Assembly: GCA_038998335.1 (NCBI GenBank)
Contig: JAVZHQ010000001.1
Location: forward strand, 256,001 to 320,000
Source: Candidatus Aenigmatarchaeota archaeon
GTDB taxonomy: Archaea > Aenigmatarchaeota > Aenigmatarchaeia > CG10238-14 > SCSR01
Direction: 5' to 3'
Length of the DNA: 64,000 bases
Shown: piece after piece, positions 54,745-62,452 of the stretch
Position numbering within the stretch: position 1 is the stretch's first letter
Layout of the letters: each line of letters opens with the position of its first letter
Notes under the pieces: model-generated
The model's input: only the letters and a program-made list of their open reading frames with translations
What the model was told of the DNA's origin: nothing
Databases searched by the model: none
Translations under genes and position numbers: made by a program

Positions 54745-55383
54745 ATGAATTTGAGCTTTAGGAGTTTTTTTGATTGGTTTTTAGGTTTATTCGGGCAAAG
54801 AAAAAACATAAGGTTAGGAATATACGGAGAAACTAACGTAGGAAAAACAACTCTTGCAAACAGGATTTCTCTTGACTGGACAGGAGAAGAGGTTGGAAAA
54901 GTTTCTGAAATTCCCCATGAAACTAGAACAGTACAAAAGAAAGAGAAGGTTGAGATTAAGCTAAAAAATAAAAAGATAATTTTAAACCTCTTGGACATGC
55001 CTGGCTTGGCTACAAAAGTTGATTACAGAAATTTTTTAAAGTACGGCTTGTCTAAAAAACAAGCAAAAGAAAGGGCAAGAGAAGCTACTGAAGGAATAAT
55101 AGAAGCTATTAAATGGCTTAGTAATGTTGACGCTGTTCTAGCTGTTATGGATTCTACTCGCGACCCCTTAACTCAAGTTAACATAACCCTTTTGGGAAAT
55201 TTAGAAGCAAGGAAAATCCCTGTAATTATTGTTGCGAACAAAATAGACAAGAAAAGAGCAAAGCCTCAAGCAATAAAGGAAGCTTTTCCACAGTATCCTG
55301 TTGTTGAAGTCTCTGCCTTAAAAGGAAAAAATATGGACGAACTTTATGAGGCTATAGCAAAGTATGCAAGGCGAGCAAAATGA
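54745..55383 (+). CDS. oapA: Small Era-like GTPase OapA (ArvA)
   Basis: GETNVGKTT, DMPG, ANKID, SAL; EATEGIIEAIKWL. Confidence 0.85.
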   Translation: MNLSFRSFFDWFLGLFGQRKNIRLGIYGETNVGKTTLANRISLDWTGEEVGKVSEIPHETRTVQKKEKVEIKLKNKKIILNLLDMPGLATKVDYRNFLKYGLSKKQAKERAREATEGIIEAIKWLSNVDAVLAVMDSTRDPLTQVNITLLGNLEARKIPVIIVANKIDKKRAKPQAIKEAFPQYPVVEVSALKGKNMDELYEAIAKYARRAK

Positions 55384-55778
55384 AGTTGAAAATTGATTTT
55401 GTTTCGTCTGCAACCCTTGACGGAAAACCAAGGAAAGAGAGGATAAACTTCATTTTGAACAAAGTTAAGGATGGTTCGATACTTGTAATGGACGGGGTGA
55501 TGAGCCCAGACGAAGAGCTTGACTTAATAAGAGAAACCATGAGAAGAGTAGACGATGGCTTTCCTGGAATTGAAGTTTGCAGTCTTAAGAGAAAAGTAAA
55601 AGGATTTCAACTTTTCCTTGAAAGAATTTCTGACCATACTTTTAAGTTAAGAGAATTGTTCCTAAGAAAACCTTCTGAAAAAAAACTCAAGTACGGAATA
55701 ACCTTAGTAGGACCTGCAAAGTACATAAAAAAGATTAAAAAGAACCCAAACTCATTTTCTGTTCTTACAGAGGTTTAA
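55380..55778 (+). CDS. oapB: DUF2073 protein OapB
   Basis: GVMSPDEELDLIRETM...FPGIE, ITLVGPA. Confidence 0.8.
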   Translation: MKLKIDFVSSATLDGKPRKERINFILNKVKDGSILVMDGVMSPDEELDLIRETMRRVDDGFPGIEVCSLKRKVKGFQLFLERISDHTFKLRELFLRKPSEKKLKYGITLVGPAKYIKKIKKNPNSFSVLTEV

Positions 55779-55780
55779 TC

Positions 55781-56188
55781 ATGCATAAGTGTATAAGATG
55801 TGGAGAAGTATATCAGGATAATGATGAATCTATTCTTAGAGGTTGTTTAAATTGCGGCTCAATATTTTTTCTCTACTTAAAAACTTCTGAAGAAAGTAAG
55901 CAGCTAGAAGAAATAGAAAAAGAATTAAAGGAAAAAGAAACTACGCTTGAAAAAGAAATAGAAAAGAAGATAGAGGAAATAAAGGAAGAAGAAAAGGTGA
56001 AGAAGAAGAAAGTTGCAAGAAAAAAGTTTGGGATCGAAACGATAAAAATCCCGAAAGAAGGAGTTTACGAGATTAACCTCGATGCTTTGATGAAGAAAAG
56101 ACCTTTGATAGTTCTGGAGAAAGGAAAGGTTTATTTTGTTCATCTTCCTTCTGTTTTTGAAAAGGAGCTTAATAAAGATAAAGAATAG
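55781..56188 (+). CDS. oapC: Zn-ribbon protein OapC (DUF2072)
   Basis: HKCIRCG...GCLNCGSIFF, ETIKI...GVYEINL. Confidence 0.85.
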   Translation: MHKCIRCGEVYQDNDESILRGCLNCGSIFFLYLKTSEESKQLEEIEKELKEKETTLEKEIEKKIEEIKEEEKVKKKKVARKKFGIETIKIPKEGVYEINLDALMKKRPLIVLEKGKVYFVHLPSVFEKELNKDKE

Positions 56189-56822: not shown

Positions 56823-58343
56823 CTAAATAAGATGGAATTCTTTTGGTGTCTTCCCAAACCTTTTAGCAAACTCCCTAGGCCATTTCTTTGAGTCTAAACC
56901 TTTTTGAGCAAGAAAAGCTACAACCCATCTTTCCAAGCCAATTCCTGAGCATCCAGACCAAACCTCTTTTCCGCTAGAAGTTTTAAAATCCCAAGCATCG
57001 CTAAACTTGGTTCCTGCAACTGTTATATTCTGAAACTCTAACCATTCAGAGCTTTCCCTTGACCCGCGAAAAGGAAGCCAAGCTTCGAAGTCTATGGTTC
57101 CTTTTTCTTTTTCTGTTTCCCCTACTTGACCAGCTTGAGCCATGTACCAAGGTGTAACCCATGCCATCCTCCATTCTATGTCTAGAATTTTTTCGAAAAC
57201 GTACTTATACCTTTCAACAAGCTTTTCCCTTATTTCTAAGGCTTGTTCTTTTGTTCCAAGCCAAATTAACTCTATCCTGTGAAACTCGCAAACCCTTTCT
57301 ATTCCGTGTAAGCCTCCTGCTTCCCATCGCATGCTTGTTCCAGAAGCATCCCAAACTTTTATGGGCAAATCTTCTTCTCTCAAACTTTTTTTCTCAAAAT
57401 ACCAATAAAAGGGTGGACATTGAGCAAAGCATACTCCAAGCCTTGGGGGTTCGAGCTTTTCCTTTAATTGCTCATAAGGAATTTTGTTCGTAACTTTTAC
57501 GTAATCTGCAAAATCCTCCCAGAATTTTTGATCATAGGTTAAAGGTTTGCTCACATAAAAAAAAGAATTAGAAGAGCCTGGAACATGACCTGTGCGAAGC
57601 CAAACTTCTAAAGGAGTAACTTTTGGCAAAATTACTTCCTCAAACTTTAAGGGTTTAATCACTTCCTTTATTGCTATTTGTTGCATTGTTCTGAAGATTT
57701 TTGTAGGGATTGGTGTGTAAAGCCAAACTCCTGTATCAAACCTTTTAATCCATCCTAGCTTTTCCATTTCTTCTGAAGGGTCTTTATCCCAAACAGGCTT
57801 TTTCTCTTTGCTCTTCCATATAAGCTCCCAATGTTCTGCCTTTCCTCCGTATTCTTGAAGCTCGATTTTTTCCTCAACTCTTCTTAAAATCCTTTCAACG
57901 TAGCGATCTTCTAAGGCAGTAGAATCTAAGTTTTGAAGTTTAATCATAAGCTCGTTTCCCTTAACTTCAGCATCTTTAAACCAAGGAACCTTTACTTGAA
58001 TTTTTTCTTTTGGTAGTTTTTTTGGCGTGTACCTTATCTCATAGTATTTGACAAAAATGTTTCTTACTCCTATTCCATAATCTTTTCCAAATTTTTCAGA
58101 AAGAAAGTTTCTTAACCTTAAGAAAGCATCGTGTGGGCGCAAATAAGTTGTGCCTTCTATAGTAAGCAAAAGCTTTGAACCTTCTATTGACCAATGAACT
58201 ATTCTTGAACCTTCTTGTTCAGGAGGAACTCCTTTTTTAAACAACTCAGAGTTGATTTCTTTTGCAACAAGCTTAGGAAAGTCTAATTTAACTGGTTCTA
58301 AAGGTTTGCTAAATTCCATAACTCCTTCTAGTATTAGCCTCAT
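56823..58343 (-). CDS. serS: Seryl-tRNA synthetase, type 2 (methanogen-type)
   Basis: N-terminal alpha/beta domain (YLRPHDAFLRL), FAQCPPFY, RWEAGGLHGIERVCEFHRIE, WSGCSGIGLERW. Confidence 0.9.
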   Translation of the reverse strand: MRLILEGVMEFSKPLEPVKLDFPKLVAKEINSELFKKGVPPEQEGSRIVHWSIEGSKLLLTIEGTTYLRPHDAFLRLRNFLSEKFGKDYGIGVRNIFVKYYEIRYTPKKLPKEKIQVKVPWFKDAEVKGNELMIKLQNLDSTALEDRYVERILRRVEEKIELQEYGGKAEHWELIWKSKEKKPVWDKDPSEEMEKLGWIKRFDTGVWLYTPIPTKIFRTMQQIAIKEVIKPLKFEEVILPKVTPLEVWLRTGHVPGSSNSFFYVSKPLTYDQKFWEDFADYVKVTNKIPYEQLKEKLEPPRLGVCFAQCPPFYWYFEKKSLREEDLPIKVWDASGTSMRWEAGGLHGIERVCEFHRIELIWLGTKEQALEIREKLVERYKYVFEKILDIEWRMAWVTPWYMAQAGQVGETEKEKGTIDFEAWLPFRGSRESSEWLEFQNITVAGTKFSDAWDFKTSSGKEVWSGCSGIGLERWVVAFLAQKGLDSKKWPREFAKRFGKTPKEFHLI

Positions 58344-58386
58344 AACAATCAATAACTTGATTTAGTTCTTGAATTAAATATAATTT

Positions 58387-59682
58387 ATGCCAGAAAGTTT
58401 AAAAAGAGCTCTTACTTTTAAGGATGTAGTAATCCTTGGAGTTGCAATAATAATTGGAGCAGGAATCTATAGCATAATAGGAAAAGCTGTAGGAATTGCA
58501 GGCTATTCGGTTTGGGTTTCTGTAATTTTTGCAGGCGTAGTTACTTGTTTTACTGGCTTGAGCTTTGCTGAAATGACGAGCATTTATCCAAAAACTTATG
58601 GCTATTTTAAGCTAATTAAAACTGCTTTGGAAAGTATGGGAGGAAAAGTTTGGGGTTTTGTAGTTGAATGGATTTTGGTTTTAGCTTGCATATTTGCTAT
58701 AGCAACAATTTCTTTAGCTTTTGGAGGCTATTTTTCTAGTTTTGTTTCTTCTGATAAAGTTTTGGCAGCAGTTTTAATAATACTCTTTTCTGCTTTTGTT
58801 TCTTATGTAGGAGTAAAGGAATCTGTAAGTATTACGATAATTTTTTCCCTAGCAGAAATCTTAGGCTTGATAGTGGTAATAGTGCTTGGGATTTTCTTCT
58901 TAAGGCCTGACGTAAAAGTTTTGCTTGATTTTAAGTTTGATTCTAACATATTCTATGCTGCTTCTCTTATATTTTTTGCTTTTACCGGTTTTGAGCTAAT
59001 TCCTGCTCAAGCAGAAGAAACTCAAAGTGCAGAAAAATTTGTTCCTAAGGCTATAGTTGCTTCAATACTCATTTGCACGCTGATTTATTGTTTGGTTTCT
59101 ATCGCAGTTACAAACTTGTTAGAGCCTAGCATGTTAGAAGTTTCACAAGCTCCTTTGGTTGATGCAGTTTCAGCAAAGTTTGGAAGCAGCTTTGGTTGGT
59201 TTTTATGGATTTGCGCTATAATCTCAATTGTTACAACAGTTTTAGGCGTAACTATAACGAGCTCAAGACTTGTTTATGGTTTAGCAAAAGAAAAACTCTT
59301 TCCTATTTTCCTTTCAAAAGTTTCTAAAAGGTTTAAAACTCCTAGTCTAGCTATTTTCACAATAGCTTTTCTCTCAGCTATAACCACTTTTTTGATAAAG
59401 GATTTGAAAACCACGGCCGAGATTGCAAACTTCTTAACAATACTAACTTTTTACTTGGTAAACATTTCTGTAATAGTTTTAAGATGGACAAAGCCAAGAA
59501 TACCGAGAGGCTTTAAAGTTCCTTTAAACTTTAAAAACACTCCTATACCTTCTTTAACAGCAAGTATTTTCTGCATGTTTTTGCTCTTTCATTTTCCTTT
59601 TGTAATAATTTTTAACGCAGTTTTTATCATAGGTTTAGGAATAGTTTTTTACTTTTTGACAAGGGAAAAATTTTTCGCTTAA
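58387..59682 (+). CDS. APC-family amino acid permease
   Basis: IIGAGIY, FFAFTGFE, AEE; about 12 TM segments. Confidence 0.92.
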   Translation: MPESLKRALTFKDVVILGVAIIIGAGIYSIIGKAVGIAGYSVWVSVIFAGVVTCFTGLSFAEMTSIYPKTYGYFKLIKTALESMGGKVWGFVVEWILVLACIFAIATISLAFGGYFSSFVSSDKVLAAVLIILFSAFVSYVGVKESVSITIIFSLAEILGLIVVIVLGIFFLRPDVKVLLDFKFDSNIFYAASLIFFAFTGFELIPAQAEETQSAEKFVPKAIVASILICTLIYCLVSIAVTNLLEPSMLEVSQAPLVDAVSAKFGSSFGWFLWICAIISIVTTVLGVTITSSRLVYGLAKEKLFPIFLSKVSKRFKTPSLAIFTIAFLSAITTFLIKDLKTTAEIANFLTILTFYLVNISVIVLRWTKPRIPRGFKVPLNFKNTPIPSLTASIFCMFLLFHFPFVIIFNAVFIIGLGIVFYFLTREKFFA

Positions 59683-60752
59683 CTTGTAACTTCAAACTGC
59701 TTAAAAGTTTCAACAAGCTTTTTGTTTTCAGGTTTTTCAAAATGCTCTCTTACTGGTTTAATTATTTTATCAAGCTCTCTTGCAACGTTTAGCTTTAAGT
59801 CTTGGGGATGAACTTTTCCTTCTCTAAAAGCTTTTTCCAGTTCTTCGTAACTTTCAAAAGTTATGTTACCGCCATACTTCCTTTCTCTTTCTACTTCAAA
59901 ACTTCTGTTTTCTCGGAAAATTATGTACTTTGCAATTTCTAATACAGGATTATTTTCAACTACTTTTTCAGGGCACCAAGCCTTTCTTAATTTTTCTTCT
60001 ATTTCTTCTTTTTTATCATGAACAAAAATGCAAGTCCAAGGTTTTGACTTGCTCATTTTTGCTGCTATAGTTTTTTCTAACTTTTCTTTTGTTTTTATTT
60101 CTGGTGGCTTAGCTAAGCCAGGAAGCAAGTGGTGATGAATTGCTATGGGCTTTTTCCACCCTAGCTTAGGAAAAACTTCTCTACATAAAACATGGGCTTT
60201 TCTTTGGTCCATTCCACCATGAGCTATGTCTTTACCTAAGTATTTCACATCCATGCATTGCAAAGGAGGATAAATAAATTGAGAAAAGTCAAGCTTTTCC
60301 TTCTCGCTTCTTCCCATTATCGTTAGGCAGCGAGTAACTCTTGGCAAAGTTATTTTTTTGCAAAACCTTACTAAATCTTTCCAATACTCATCGTTATTAT
60401 GGTAAAGCTCTGAACCTAAAACAATCTCAGCTTTTGGGCAAAAAAACTTAAAACCTTCTGCAAAGTATTCAGAAGCTTTTTTTATGTTTTCCCAGTTTCC
60501 TCCAAGCTTGTTGTTGATAAAAGTGTGCCAGTCTGCAAGGAAAACTTTACATTTTATTCCTGCTTCTGCTAAATCGTTTATCTTGTAGCCGCAAATTAAT
60601 AAAGTACCTATATGTAATAAACCAGAGATTTCAAAACCTATGTAATGCTCAGGTTTGTCGTTGGTTTCAAGCAATTGTTTCAATTCTTCTTCTGTTAGTA
60701 TTTCTTCTGTTGGTGGTCTTTTTATAAGCTCAAGTTTTGTTTCTAGGTCCAT
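59679..60752 (-). CDS. tyrS: Tyrosyl-tRNA synthetase
   Basis: YIGFEISGLLHIG, GGMDQRKAH, KMSKS. Confidence 0.95.
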   Translation of the reverse strand: MDLETKLELIKRPPTEEILTEEELKQLLETNDKPEHYIGFEISGLLHIGTLLICGYKINDLAEAGIKCKVFLADWHTFINNKLGGNWENIKKASEYFAEGFKFFCPKAEIVLGSELYHNNDEYWKDLVRFCKKITLPRVTRCLTIMGRSEKEKLDFSQFIYPPLQCMDVKYLGKDIAHGGMDQRKAHVLCREVFPKLGWKKPIAIHHHLLPGLAKPPEIKTKEKLEKTIAAKMSKSKPWTCIFVHDKKEEIEEKLRKAWCPEKVVENNPVLEIAKYIIFRENRSFEVERERKYGGNITFESYEELEKAFREGKVHPQDLKLNVARELDKIIKPVREHFEKPENKKLVETFKQFEVTS

Positions 60753-60790: not shown

Positions 60791-60806
60791 TGTTAGACGT
60801 CTAACA
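60791..60806. repeat. 16-bp perfect palindrome, copy 1
   Basis: TGTTAGACGTCTAACA between tfb stop and tyrS start. Confidence 0.95.
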
Positions 60807-60817
60807 TCCAAAAATTT

Positions 60818-61750
60818 TTAAAGCTCAACTATAAACATAAGTCTTTCTACAAGTTCTTTATACCTGTTCCTTATTGTAACTTCTGTGCATCTCATTTTCT
60901 CGGCCAAATCTCTTTGAGTTATCCTTTCTCCTGTTAAAACAGAAGCTATATAAGCAGCAGCTGCTGCTAAACCAGTAGGAGCTTTCCCAAGAGTTAGCCT
61001 AGCTTGTTTAGCAGCTAAAAGTATTTTGTAAGCTACGTCTTCCGTTTTACCAGATTTACCAGCTTCATTTAATGGTCTAGAAACATACTCTCCAGGAGAA
61101 GGAGGAGGCAATTTATAGCCCAATTCTTTTACTATAAATCTATAACTTCTTCCTATTTCTGTTTTCCTAAGACCAGAAATTTCAGAAACTTGATCGATCG
61201 ATCTAGGTATTCCTAATTGCCTGCATGATAAATAAACACTAGCAACAGCAAGCCCCTCTAAAGACCTTCCACGTGAAATTCTTTCTTTTAAGGCTTTTCT
61301 AAGAATAAGAGAAGCGTTTTCCATGGCATTTTTTGGTAGTTCCAGTTTGTTACTTATCTTGATGATTTGATCTAAACCCAAAGCCAAGCTTCGTTCGTTA
61401 GCGTCAGAAACTCTCATCCTTGTCTGCCACTTTCTTAAGCGATAAGATGTTTCCTTTTGTTGTGGCTTTAAAGGCTTTCCATACGCATCACGATCGAGAT
61501 TACTGATTGATGTCATTAGACCCATGTCGTGAAGTGTGTAAGTTAAAGGTGCACCACTTCTTGGCCTTTTTTCTCTTTGCTCTTCGTCAAAAGCTCTCCA
61601 CTCCGGACCTTTATCGTAAATCTTTTGTGCTATAACAAGACCACAATTGCTACATACATCTTCTCCTGTGTCGTAATCTTTTATTATGTTCTTGCTACCA
61701 CACTCAGGACATTTTTCAACTCTTGCTCTCAACAAAGGTTTTTCTTCCAT
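60818..61750 (-). CDS. tfb: Transcription initiation factor B
   Basis: CPECGS...CSNCG Zn ribbon, GPEWRAF, RLRKWQ, TEVTIRNRYKEL. Confidence 0.95.
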   Translation of the reverse strand: MEEKPLLRARVEKCPECGSKNIIKDYDTGEDVCSNCGLVIAQKIYDKGPEWRAFDEEQREKRPRSGAPLTYTLHDMGLMTSISNLDRDAYGKPLKPQQKETSYRLRKWQTRMRVSDANERSLALGLDQIIKISNKLELPKNAMENASLILRKALKERISRGRSLEGLAVASVYLSCRQLGIPRSIDQVSEISGLRKTEIGRSYRFIVKELGYKLPPPSPGEYVSRPLNEAGKSGKTEDVAYKILLAAKQARLTLGKAPTGLAAAAAYIASVLTGERITQRDLAEKMRCTEVTIRNRYKELVERLMFIVEL

Positions 61751-61797
61751 GTTGACTTATTCTCTAATAAGTTGTTTAATTTTAAAAGTTTTTTAGG

Positions 61798-61813
61798 TGT
61801 TAGACGTCTAACA
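61798..61813. repeat. 16-bp perfect palindrome, copy 2
   Basis: TGTTAGACGTCTAACA between cas2-like stop and tfb start. Confidence 0.95.
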
Positions 61814-61853
61814 TTTAAAAAATTTATTCTCCATCATAATTTGCCTTTAAAAA

Positions 61854-62063
61854 TTAAACTGAAATTACTTTCTTCTCAAGAAGAATTGCTTCCCCACCTT
61901 GGTTTTTTATTCTTGTTGCTATTAACCTTAAAGTTTTTATGTCATCGCTTTCCCAAACAGAATGCTGAATTTTTTCTGCTCTAATTGCTTTTAAAGCTCT
62001 GTTTACTTGAACTTGCAAGACTTTTTTATCTCTTGGGATGTCGTAAATTATTATGTACTTCAT
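61854..62063 (-). CDS. Stand-alone Cas2/VapD/PaaX-central-domain-like protein
   Basis: YIIIYDIP...KIQHSVW; 69 aa; no cas1 or array in window. Confidence 0.7.
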   Translation of the reverse strand: MKYIIIYDIPRDKKVLQVQVNRALKAIRAEKIQHSVWESDDIKTLRLIATRIKNQGGEAILLEKKVISV

Positions 62064-62067
62064 AAGT

Positions 62068-62083
62068 TGTTATACGTCTAACA
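62068..62083. repeat. 16-bp palindrome, copy 3 (one mismatch)
   Basis: TGTTATACGTCTAACA, 4 nt upstream of the cas2-like ATG. Confidence 0.9.
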
Positions 62084-62102
62084 AGCTTAAAAATTTTTCT
62101 AG

Positions 62103-62118
62103 TGTTAGACGTCTAACA
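62103..62118. repeat. 16-bp perfect palindrome, copy 4
   Basis: TGTTAGACGTCTAACA; supplies the stop codon of the SUI1-like ORF. Confidence 0.95.
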
Positions 62119-62431
62119 TAAAAAATAAAAAAAGAAGGGAGGTTAAGGAAAGTTTTTGTAAGATTTCAACAATTTTAGCAGGTTCGTGAATGCCTCTGAG
62201 AACTATTTCCTTTTGGTTGATGCTACCACTAGTGTTGAGAGCTTTTTGAAGTTCTTTTAAAGCTCTCTTTCTCCACGCTTCACTTTTTGTTATTTCTCCG
62301 CTGACTATTGTACAACCATTAGATGTTTTTTGAATCTTTACTTCGCATATTTTCTTTTCCTTCTCATCTTTAAGAGGACAAGAGCAATCTTTCTTAAGAT
62401 CTTTTGGCATACCACAAGCTTTACACGCCAT
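62105..62431 (-). CDS. Divergent aIF1/SUI1 paralog
   Basis: CKACGMP...CSC and ELQKALNTSGSINQKEIVLRGIH versus QLKQKLACGGTFKKGHIELQGDH of the copy at 49379. Confidence 0.65.
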   Translation of the reverse strand: MACKACGMPKDLKKDCSCPLKDEKEKKICEVKIQKTSNGCTIVSGEITKSEAWRKRALKELQKALNTSGSINQKEIVLRGIHEPAKIVEILQKLSLTSLLFLFFMLDV

Positions 62432-62452
62432 TCTCCCATCCTCTCTATTCAA

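Follow-up and report, generated by a model that had tools for sequence, protein, structure and literature searches.

Organization of the locus

Four genes lie on the minus strand at this locus: a SUI1/YciH-like ORF (62105..62452), the gene of a 69-residue Cas2-like protein (61854..62063), tfb (60818..61750), which encodes the second TFB of the genome, and tyrS (59679..60752). They belong to a 64,000-nucleotide window, the whole stretch of DNA that was analysed (G000:C1:256001-320000), from the source genome G000 (1.0 Mb, 90% complete); other G numbers designate related genomes. The 16-bp palindrome TGTTAGACGTCTAACA is perfect at 60791, 61798 and 62103 and has one mismatch at 62068. A sequence check confirms these four copies and their spacings to TATA-like boxes and to the ATG, as reported in an earlier note on this DNA, and bears out its order of palindrome, tfb, palindrome, Cas2-like gene, palindrome, a gap of 19 bp and a last palindrome. 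With up to three mismatches allowed, the window holds five matches compared with 0.17 expected, and none of 100 shuffles reaches five.

On the minus strand, TATA-like boxes begin 8, 10 and 9 nt after the palindromes at 60791, 61798 and 62103, respectively. The palindrome at 62103..62118, 9 nt upstream of the TATA box of the Cas2-like gene, includes the stop codon of the SUI1/YciH-like ORF as called. This ORF is upstream of the Cas2-like gene but, since other genes replace it in G005 and G012, is not part of the same unit. A BRE-like purine run (62099-62094) and a TATA-like box (62093-62086), whose first T is 30 nt before the ATG, form a putative leaderless promoter on the minus strand (62086..62099), and archaeal promoter spacing in general supports this assignment. 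The one-mismatch palindrome (62068..62083) sits between this TATA box and the ATG and ends 4 nt before the latter. Its position is conserved across the family, and it is the candidate operator for autorepression. The 69-residue ORF itself sits in an open frame of 71 codons.

The perfect palindrome at 61798..61813 follows the Cas2-like stop codon by 40 nt and precedes the tfb TATA-like box (61787-61780) by 10 nt; it is also present in the relatives G001, G003, G005, G035 and G146. Likewise, the perfect palindrome at 60791..60806 follows the tfb stop by 11 nt and precedes the tyrS TATA-like box (60782-60775) by 8 nt. The promoter of tyrS thus follows the first palindrome, and tyrS is a neighbour and possible target outside the mobile unit described below. 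In G001 about 630 bp of extra DNA starts at the tfb-side edge of the 60791 palindrome. The three perfect copies of the window share g...t flanks and had been described as co-oriented 18-mers; this is correct for the window, but the flanks vary among the 21 copies of the genome, which rules out the 18-mer as the repeated unit.

A Cas2-like fold in a mobile family of small proteins

In profile searches, the 69-residue protein matches CRISPR_Cas2 and PaaX_M, both under the cut-offs. The curated CRISPR Cas2 cut-offs are missed with 20.7 vs 23.8 bits and 21.1 vs 24.5 bits. Among 78 family members CRISPR_Cas2 is matched by 36, PaaX_M by 19 and ChrB_N by 12, and the family profile aligns with a ChrB_N protein (P0090) at 98.4% probability and an E-value of 5.5e-15. 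By this profile match the protein has a ChrB-type N-terminal domain with a basic helix, which would serve operator binding. The monomer model has a pLDDT of 95.9 and its best structure matches are Cas2 proteins. The closest fold is 3exc (Z 7.9, rmsd 2.4 Å, 67 residues aligned); Foldseek finds 2ivy with E 2.6e-4 and, lower, VapD (6zi1). The homodimer model scores 0.58, compared with 0.00 for the best control, and its contacts agree to at least 97% between runs with pLDDT of at least 92. The mark for a homodimer is reached by 20 of 30 solved pairs and one of 23 single chains, and resemblance to solved Cas2 dimers probably contributed to this result. Helix 1 (residues 14–26), the putative recognition helix, is not among the interface residues of the model. 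Asp8, which follows strand 1, is present in 93 of 97 proteins and is replaced by Gln or Lys in four members that keep the palindrome. No Tyr or His column is conserved in more than 60 of the 97 rows, and no conserved catalytic Tyr or Ser is found outside the QxSVW motif.

The protein belongs to a mobile, multicopy Aenigmatarchaeota family. Its named homologues are from Aenigmatarchaeota. Among 371 genomes of the phylum, 64 have a family member, and 62 of these 64 belong to a single order. The 94 family representatives are mostly 66–98 residues long, and a few longer proteins carry the domain. G009 has up to 15 intact paralogs together with fragments; G000 has two further copies, both broken. 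Adjoining genes are unrelated between loci, about half of them are convergent, and there is no constant partner gene. In G011, two copies whose flanks differ are identical from 63 nt upstream through the stop codon. A unit reaching from -44 to the stop codon, set between unrelated flanks, is 98% identical in two genomes that belong to different orders. The promoter–operator–ORF unit is therefore mobile, and no target duplication is seen at it. Viral carriers of the gene were considered and rejected, because viral contigs contain no homologue. Also, 35 viral stretches contain the 16-mer and none of them has a Cas2-like gene within 1.5 kb, and a BFVD fold search gives nothing under E 0.001. We found no description of the family in the open-licence literature, where supplementary tables could still contain such families as rows.

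Operators of the homologues and the residue–base code

In the first 61 genomes, 73 of 89 homologous matches, some of them near-duplicates, have their own 16-bp palindrome just upstream, as do 50 of 53 held-out matches from other genomes. The operator has the form TG-N4-ACGT-N4-CA and typically comes right after a BRE/TATA-like motif and before the start codon. By the scan, 16 of the 89 matches are without a palindrome, including four copies beside rpl11. A palindrome lies downstream of the gene in 11 of 89, and most genes have a site on one side only. Among 97 non-redundant operator sites 70 are perfect, in 33 versions.

Residues of helix 1 co-vary with the arm bases. Mutual information (62 proteins below 80% identity) peaks for residues 18, 21 and 17 against arm bases 3, 4 and 6. 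In contingency tables of 97 proteins below 80% identity, with their sites, Arg or Lys at position 18 occurs with C4 in 28 of 30 proteins (0 of 67 others) and Leu18 with A3 in 11 of 11 (2 of 86 others). Phe, Trp, Leu or Tyr at position 21 occurs with a purine at base 4 in 29 of 37 (3 of 60 others), and Lys17 with C6 in 21 of 23 (15 of 74 others). Arg22 is paired with G2 in 95 of 96 proteins, and the sole protein with Leu22 has T2. For the central bases, an apparent link to residues 8, 11 and 34 rests on few clades and was dropped.

Code rules written from the first set, some of which allow two bases, were applied to the 53 held-out matches, whose loci come from other genomes, some of them close kin. 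At 50 sites the rules are right for base 3 in 47, for base 4 in 44, for base 6 in 33 and for all three in 25. The nearest protein, judged outside the helix, gives 40, 24, 25 and 11 as baseline (n = 50), and the commonest base is right for base 4 in 13 of 50. Shuffles give all three bases in 5.5 cases on average and in 14 at most (5000 shuffles). Across the 97 non-redundant pairs, arm identity correlates with identity outside the helix at only r = 0.04, and the top single positions are 18, 21, 14 and 17. On a tree made without the helix columns (57 columns), Arg/Lys18 changes 14 times and C4 changes 12 times. Independent pairs on well-supported branches number only 2–4, too few for significance, and Lys17/C6 runs the opposite way in 0.5 of 4 independent tree pairs. 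The check proposed in the earlier note, whether palindromes lie beside the homologues and co-vary with the protein, comes out positive for most of them, with residues 17, 18 and 21 predicting arm bases.

Residues 14, 17, 18, 21 and 22 share one helix face, as direct major-groove reading would predict. From the covariation and the models, the Cas2-fold dimer is very likely a sequence-specific binder of its palindrome, and it is nearly as likely that the protein represses its own promoter. Rather than a nuclease, it would very probably be a regulator that binds DNA and represses its own gene. A stand-alone homodimer would read double-stranded TG-N4-ACGT-N4-CA with one helix 1 in each arm, where Arg22 would contact G2, residue 18 bases 3 and 4, residue 21 base 4 and residue 17 base 6. 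The leaderless promoter of the gene would be repressed through the site between TATA box and ATG. The earlier note had proposed a non-CRISPR Cas2-fold system acting on its own palindromic site with autorepressor geometry, and the fold, the upstream operators and the held-out code all agree with this.

Dispersed copies of the palindrome

G000 holds 21 copies of the palindrome at up to one mismatch, all on C1 and all intergenic. Seventeen are perfect, four have one mismatch and, when the limit is relaxed, none has two, a distribution stricter than in usual regulons. Of 61 related genomes, 13 contain the exact 16-mer, and these 13 belong to a single family; controls give no match. At least five generic-motif matches are found in 20 of 36 genomes that have a Cas2-like gene vs 0 of 25 without, although kin are not independent in this comparison. 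The sites of G000 fall in 13 tandem, 2 divergent and 6 convergent gaps (n = 21); convergent enrichment depends on the null and was computed with a seventh site that in fact precedes a tRNA, so only the count of six is used. Ten of the 21 sites stand 33–52 nt before a start codon vs 2.8 expected, with the distance window chosen on the same data, and these are 10 of the 15 non-convergent sites. In G042 (15 regions) 8 of 21 sites are in this range vs 3.8 expected (sd 1.7). G009 (20 regions) has four such sites vs 4.0 expected and hence no promoter-distance bias, and 17 of its 42 sites are convergent; ORF calls are crude for both genomes. In G005, five of eight classed sites are convergent.

The paralog-rich genome G009 has 49 motif matches, 45 of them perfect, of 13 types, and different types stand together. 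Eight of 19 close neighbour distances are 20–21 bp, always between different site types. Six of the 13 perfect site types match the operator of an intact paralog, and seven are without a cognate gene in this 89% complete assembly. The dominant site of G042 has two likely cognate genes, both cut by contig ends. Outside the sites, no 6-bp palindrome is more depleted than the core GACGTC (5 vs 13), although the numbers are small.

Gene junctions at the palindromes

Three segments of G000, namely aconitase X, Yip1 and a three-gene block, are arranged as palindrome–cargo–palindrome and correspond to a single palindrome in G001; at the Yip1 locus the palindrome is single in G005 too. An array of six sites at G000:C1:137932-146308 has between its members two AAA ATPases, a second serS, a remnant and five genes. 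The same array locus has other bracketed cargo in G001, G005 and G012, and G012 uses its own site variant. An ATPase 95% identical to that of the G000 array is bracketed in G035, at another place, and bracketed accessory genes are also present in G006, G020 and G039. Compared with the G000 sites, the 17 copies of G001 share both flanks in seven cases, one flank in seven and neither in three; where one flank is kept (7 of 17), the other is lost right at the palindrome. Synteny is broken in 8 of 14 gaps that contain a palindrome and in 10 of 49 that do not (Fisher p 0.016); these counts are not independent, since the regions compared were chosen around palindromes and each block contributes both of its ends.

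In none of the 17 G001 copies are the outer flanks of two G000 sites brought together; excision is therefore imprecise, and precise excision between two sites was rejected as a mechanism. There are also insertions beside a single palindrome without a second copy, in G001 and in G035/G146 at tfb and in G005 at a tRNA. At the hel308–rubrerythrin junction, a palindrome with about 20 extra bases is found in G005 only, of five genomes keeping the junction. Sites are therefore recent gains and draw junctions to themselves, but they do not form precise cassette ends.

Comparison of tyrS and other loci with relatives, proposed earlier as a search for empty sites, does give single-palindrome counterparts, but the empty sites are imprecise. 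tyrS has no palindrome in 9 of 11 other genomes read at that locus. In G004 and G015, a second, more distant tfb (45% and 40% identical) adjoins tyrS with no palindrome, so the capture of tfb by palindromes is not supported and was dropped. What remains of the cassette element envisaged by the earlier note is that palindromes coincide with junctions of gained, lost and swapped genes. G000 has four tyrosine recombinases, one of which (XerA-like) is about 400 bp from a site. In sequencing runs, part of the array is present in 13 rows of four studies, with no RNA run among those listed.

Comparison with known systems

By the tested features, the Cas2-like protein is not a CRISPR Cas2, PaaX, ChrB, RAYT or integron protein. 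It resembles CRISPR Cas2 (PF09827, TIGR01573; PDB entries 3exc, 2ivy and 1zpw) in its fold, the Asp after strand 1, the QxSV motif and the predicted dimer. The same helix region touches DNA in Cas1–Cas2, and in the Synechocystis complex Cas2 residues K13, K17, R19 and R21 hold the prespacer backbone without base contacts (PMC7969031). Unlike CRISPR Cas2, which contacts the backbone and does not read bases, the present family misses the Cas2 cut-offs and its bases follow its residues. A CRISPR context was rejected for G000. There is no PF01867 (cas1) match at E ≤ 1 in this 90% complete genome and no CRISPR array: the repeats on C1 lie inside a 3511-residue ORF, and on C2 there is just one repeated 20-mer, present three times. 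The absence of cas1 and of an array, previously noted for the window, therefore extends to G000.

By analogy, the protein appears to work most like the N-terminal domain of ChrB from Ochrobactrum tritici (Pfam ChrB_N, PF20229), its nearest precedent. The N-terminal domains are related. ChrB, a chromate-responsive repressor, is a dimer that acts on an inverted repeat over its promoter, located at -37 to -4 relative to its ATG, and the changes R18A or R23A abolish repression (PMC3817168). Arg18 and Arg23, five apart, would have the spacing of positions 17 and 22 here. The ChrB paper gives no fold and no base-reading code (PMC3817168). Unlike ChrB, the 69-residue protein has no C-terminal chromate-sensing part and no chrA linkage, and its neighbours vary. 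Its site is a 16-bp palindrome without spacer, its many paralogs differ in specificity and its sites are scattered genome-wide.

The central Cas2-like domain of PaaX (PF20803) is the PaaX_M domain that 19 of 78 members match. In PaaX this domain is flanked by a winged helix at the N terminus and a further domain at the C terminus, whereas here the Cas2-like domain stands alone in a 69-residue ORF and appears to read DNA itself. The DNA-binding domains of papillomavirus E2 and EBNA1 are dimeric ferredoxin-like barrels that place one helix per subunit on a palindrome; this is an analogy only, and they do not appear in the list of fold matches, although likeness may still exist. The VapD toxin (6zi1), a ribonuclease with a VapX/VapW antitoxin, is similar in fold only, and no constant partner gene is present here.

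REP/RAYT systems have an HUH motif, a catalytic tyrosine and a stem-loop with a conserved flanking foot, and integron attC sites have outer and inner boxes around a spacer. With both, the present sites share the placement of palindromes between accessory genes and arrays with changing cargo; neither an IntI nor an HUH enzyme is shown for them. In contrast to REP/RAYT, no Tyr/His column is conserved, the flanks vary and 116 sites of eight genomes show no excess of complementary bases outside the 16-mer. The REP-like hairpin element suggested before thus finds no support, and a hairpin or fold-back origin of the sites is rejected by the lack of arm extension. In contrast to attC cassettes, the site is a bare 16-mer with no inner boxes or loop, and its sequence is tied to a small binding protein. 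The window 16-mer reads GTTRRRY and then RYYYAAC with nothing between, but most family sites are without that pattern, and likeness to attC is a coincidence of one variant. attC sites are reported in Aenigmatarchaeota (10.1101/2022.02.06.479319) and differ in structure from the 16-bp palindrome.

Possible roles of the dispersed sites

Our preferred explanation, which we hold to be somewhat probable as a whole, is that the binder controls or insulates transcription at dispersed sites and that recombination between the sites is passive. The unit of promoter, operator and ORF (about 270 bp) moves between loci and genomes, and its specificity would change fast. Further perfect cognate sites would accumulate between transcription units, and the bound dimer would act on transcription there. 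At many promoters, including those of tfb, tyrS, serS and a tRNA, it would lie beside BRE/TATA; at 3' ends it would serve as roadblock or boundary. Such an effect of the bound dimer is, on balance, slightly favoured. The identical 16-bp repeats would then become anchor points for gene gain, loss and swapping, with recombination probably passive rather than catalysed.

A bolder and more tentative reading, which we find doubtful, is that one family of 70-residue proteins with the Cas2 fold, reading bases by a three-residue code, writes or recruits 16-bp sites of its own throughout DPANN genomes, as junctions where genes are taken up, swapped or dropped, with 21-bp-phased combinatorial arrays in paralog-rich genomes. 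This would be a gene-capture or genome-marking system without CRISPR array, attC or transposase, and possibly a sequence-specific counterpart of the Cas2 ancestor. It is likewise unlikely that the palindromes are recombination sites of a scattered integron-like cassette system, in which the dimer pairs sites and a host recombinase (e.g. the XerA-like one) shuffles genes. The G000 segments with single-palindrome counterparts in G001, the different bracketed cargo at one locus in G000, G001, G005 and G012, the ATPase bracketed again in G035 and the accessory genes bracketed in G006, G020 and G039 fit this idea, as do the loss of one flank at 7 of 17 G001 copies and the excess of synteny breaks. 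However, no G001 copy joins two outer flanks, insertions occur beside one palindrome without a second, and most homologous genes are accompanied by a site on a single side, with a downstream palindrome in 11 of 89. The lack of a conserved catalytic Tyr or Ser outside QxSVW also speaks against it.

We consider it quite improbable that the unit is a selfish, self-silencing element and that the dispersed palindromes are pieces of about 20–22 bp written into intergenic DNA and useless to the cell. This length is the size of a protein-protected footprint, and the G005-only palindrome at hel308–rubrerythrin carries about 20 extra bases. The patchy distribution, the up to 15 intact copies with broken ones among unrelated neighbours, the 20–21 bp distances between different types in G009 and the site types without a cognate gene are also consistent with it. 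On the other side, 21 bp is equally two helical turns, no site-writing enzyme was found, and G000 and G042 have a promoter-distance bias. The sites are also preserved without mismatch and in place from species to species (both G000 flanks are shared by 7 of 17 G001 copies), which suggests selection on them.

An ordinary promoter regulon, in which the protein would be an activator upstream of BRE at tfb, tyrS and other genes and a repressor of itself, with 3' copies as leftovers, is very unlikely. The fixed spacing of 8–10 nt to TATA-like boxes in the window and the sites 33–52 nt before starts (10 of 15 non-convergent in G000, 8 of 21 in G042) would agree with it, but sites are convergent in 6 of 21 cases in G000, 17 of 42 in G009 and 5 of 8 in G005, and targets differ between close species, tyrS having no site in 9 of 11 other genomes. 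The narrower tfb/tyrS regulon of the earlier note does not account for 21 sites, six of them convergent, for palindrome gaps enriched in synteny breaks or for homologues whose neighbours are unrelated between loci. Least credible of all is a VapD/Cas2-like nuclease or REP-associated enzyme acting on RNA or a single-strand hairpin, with the copies as terminators or REPs: Asp8 is kept in 93 of 97 proteins, the fold matches Cas2 and, lower, VapD, and the arms change in compensating pairs, but base identity and not just pairing follows the helix residues, arm extension is absent, Asp8 is Gln or Lys in four members with a palindrome, and the conserved site, lying between TATA box and start, is most likely not transcribed.

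Implications

If binding is confirmed, the Cas2 fold, known as a DNA scaffold that does not read sequence, would also be a sequence-specific DNA-binding domain. About 100 natural protein–site pairs would then give a simple code that single substitutions can test, and a dimer of 69-residue chains whose 16-bp specificity can be switched would make a very small programmable binder. In DPANN genomes, many genes annotated as 'orphan cas2' would be read anew, and ChrB and the PaaX middle domain would be tied to the evolution of Cas2. Confirmed binding would also help to study how acquired genes, a second TFB for example, are controlled and reshuffled in small symbiotic archaea. By best matches, on which the link to Bathyarchaeia rests, this TFB has eight close relatives (four labelled Aenigmatarchaeota), followed by named Bathyarchaeia TFBs at about 60%, and it is 44% identical to the other TFB of G000.

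Further members of the Cas2-fold family and their sites

The source genome (G000) contains two broken paralogs of the Cas2-fold gene on its contig C1, at G000:C1:344362-344620 and G000:C1:496110-496242. Each carries a different operator of its own, of the TGTCATAC type. A second, distinct near-palindrome (GGAAGTGAACTTCC-like) is located about 60–68 nt 5' of the family gene at loci L030, L095, L096, L097 and L112. It lies 5' of the promoter, is present in a subset of units only, and may be bound by a different regulator or form the left end of the unit. Homologues at L015, L017, L024 and L028 (and at L016 and L044) are without palindromes. In several genomes they lie convergent to rpl11-like genes, and they perhaps represent a settled, inherited branch of the family. 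In one record of 376 aa (P0088), the Cas2-fold domain is N-terminal to a Cbf5/TruB pseudouridine synthase, either as a real fusion or by read-through.

The cas2-like/tfb segment of G000 is 92–93% identical in two genomes of other genera (G035:C45 and G146:C56), where the neighboring genes are 65–70% identical. This high identity reflects either a recent transfer or a binning error. Near-identical palindromes occur in viral contigs of about 60% GC (L345, L321 and L328), in two or three copies spaced 19–34 bp apart. No family gene was found within 1.5 kb of them, and they are probably the sites of another protein.

Genes near the palindromes and the locus

A SUI1/YciH-like ORF with a Cys-rich N-terminus occupies window positions 62105-62452. 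Its frame crosses a T-rich stretch, and the stop codon falls within the palindrome. Because the ORF ends differently in the related genomes G001 and G003, its original 3' end may have changed at the palindrome junction. The cluster of origin-associated genes (oapA-like GTPase, oapB and oapC; window 54745-56188) is about 4.6 kb from the locus. G000 has two seryl-tRNA synthetases of different types: one is long and carries a tRNA_bind_4 domain (window 56823-58352), the other is of the standard type and has palindromes on both sides (G000:C1:141049-142329). In the related genome G012, the place equivalent to that of the long type in the window is taken by the standard type instead.

A CRISPR array suggested by a simple scan was rejected; its repeats are coding and internal to a 3511-aa surface-type ORF (G000:C1:123-10658). 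A XerA-like tyrosine recombinase (G000:C1:795193-796047) is about 400 bp from a palindrome, and this arrangement is kept in G001 and G003.
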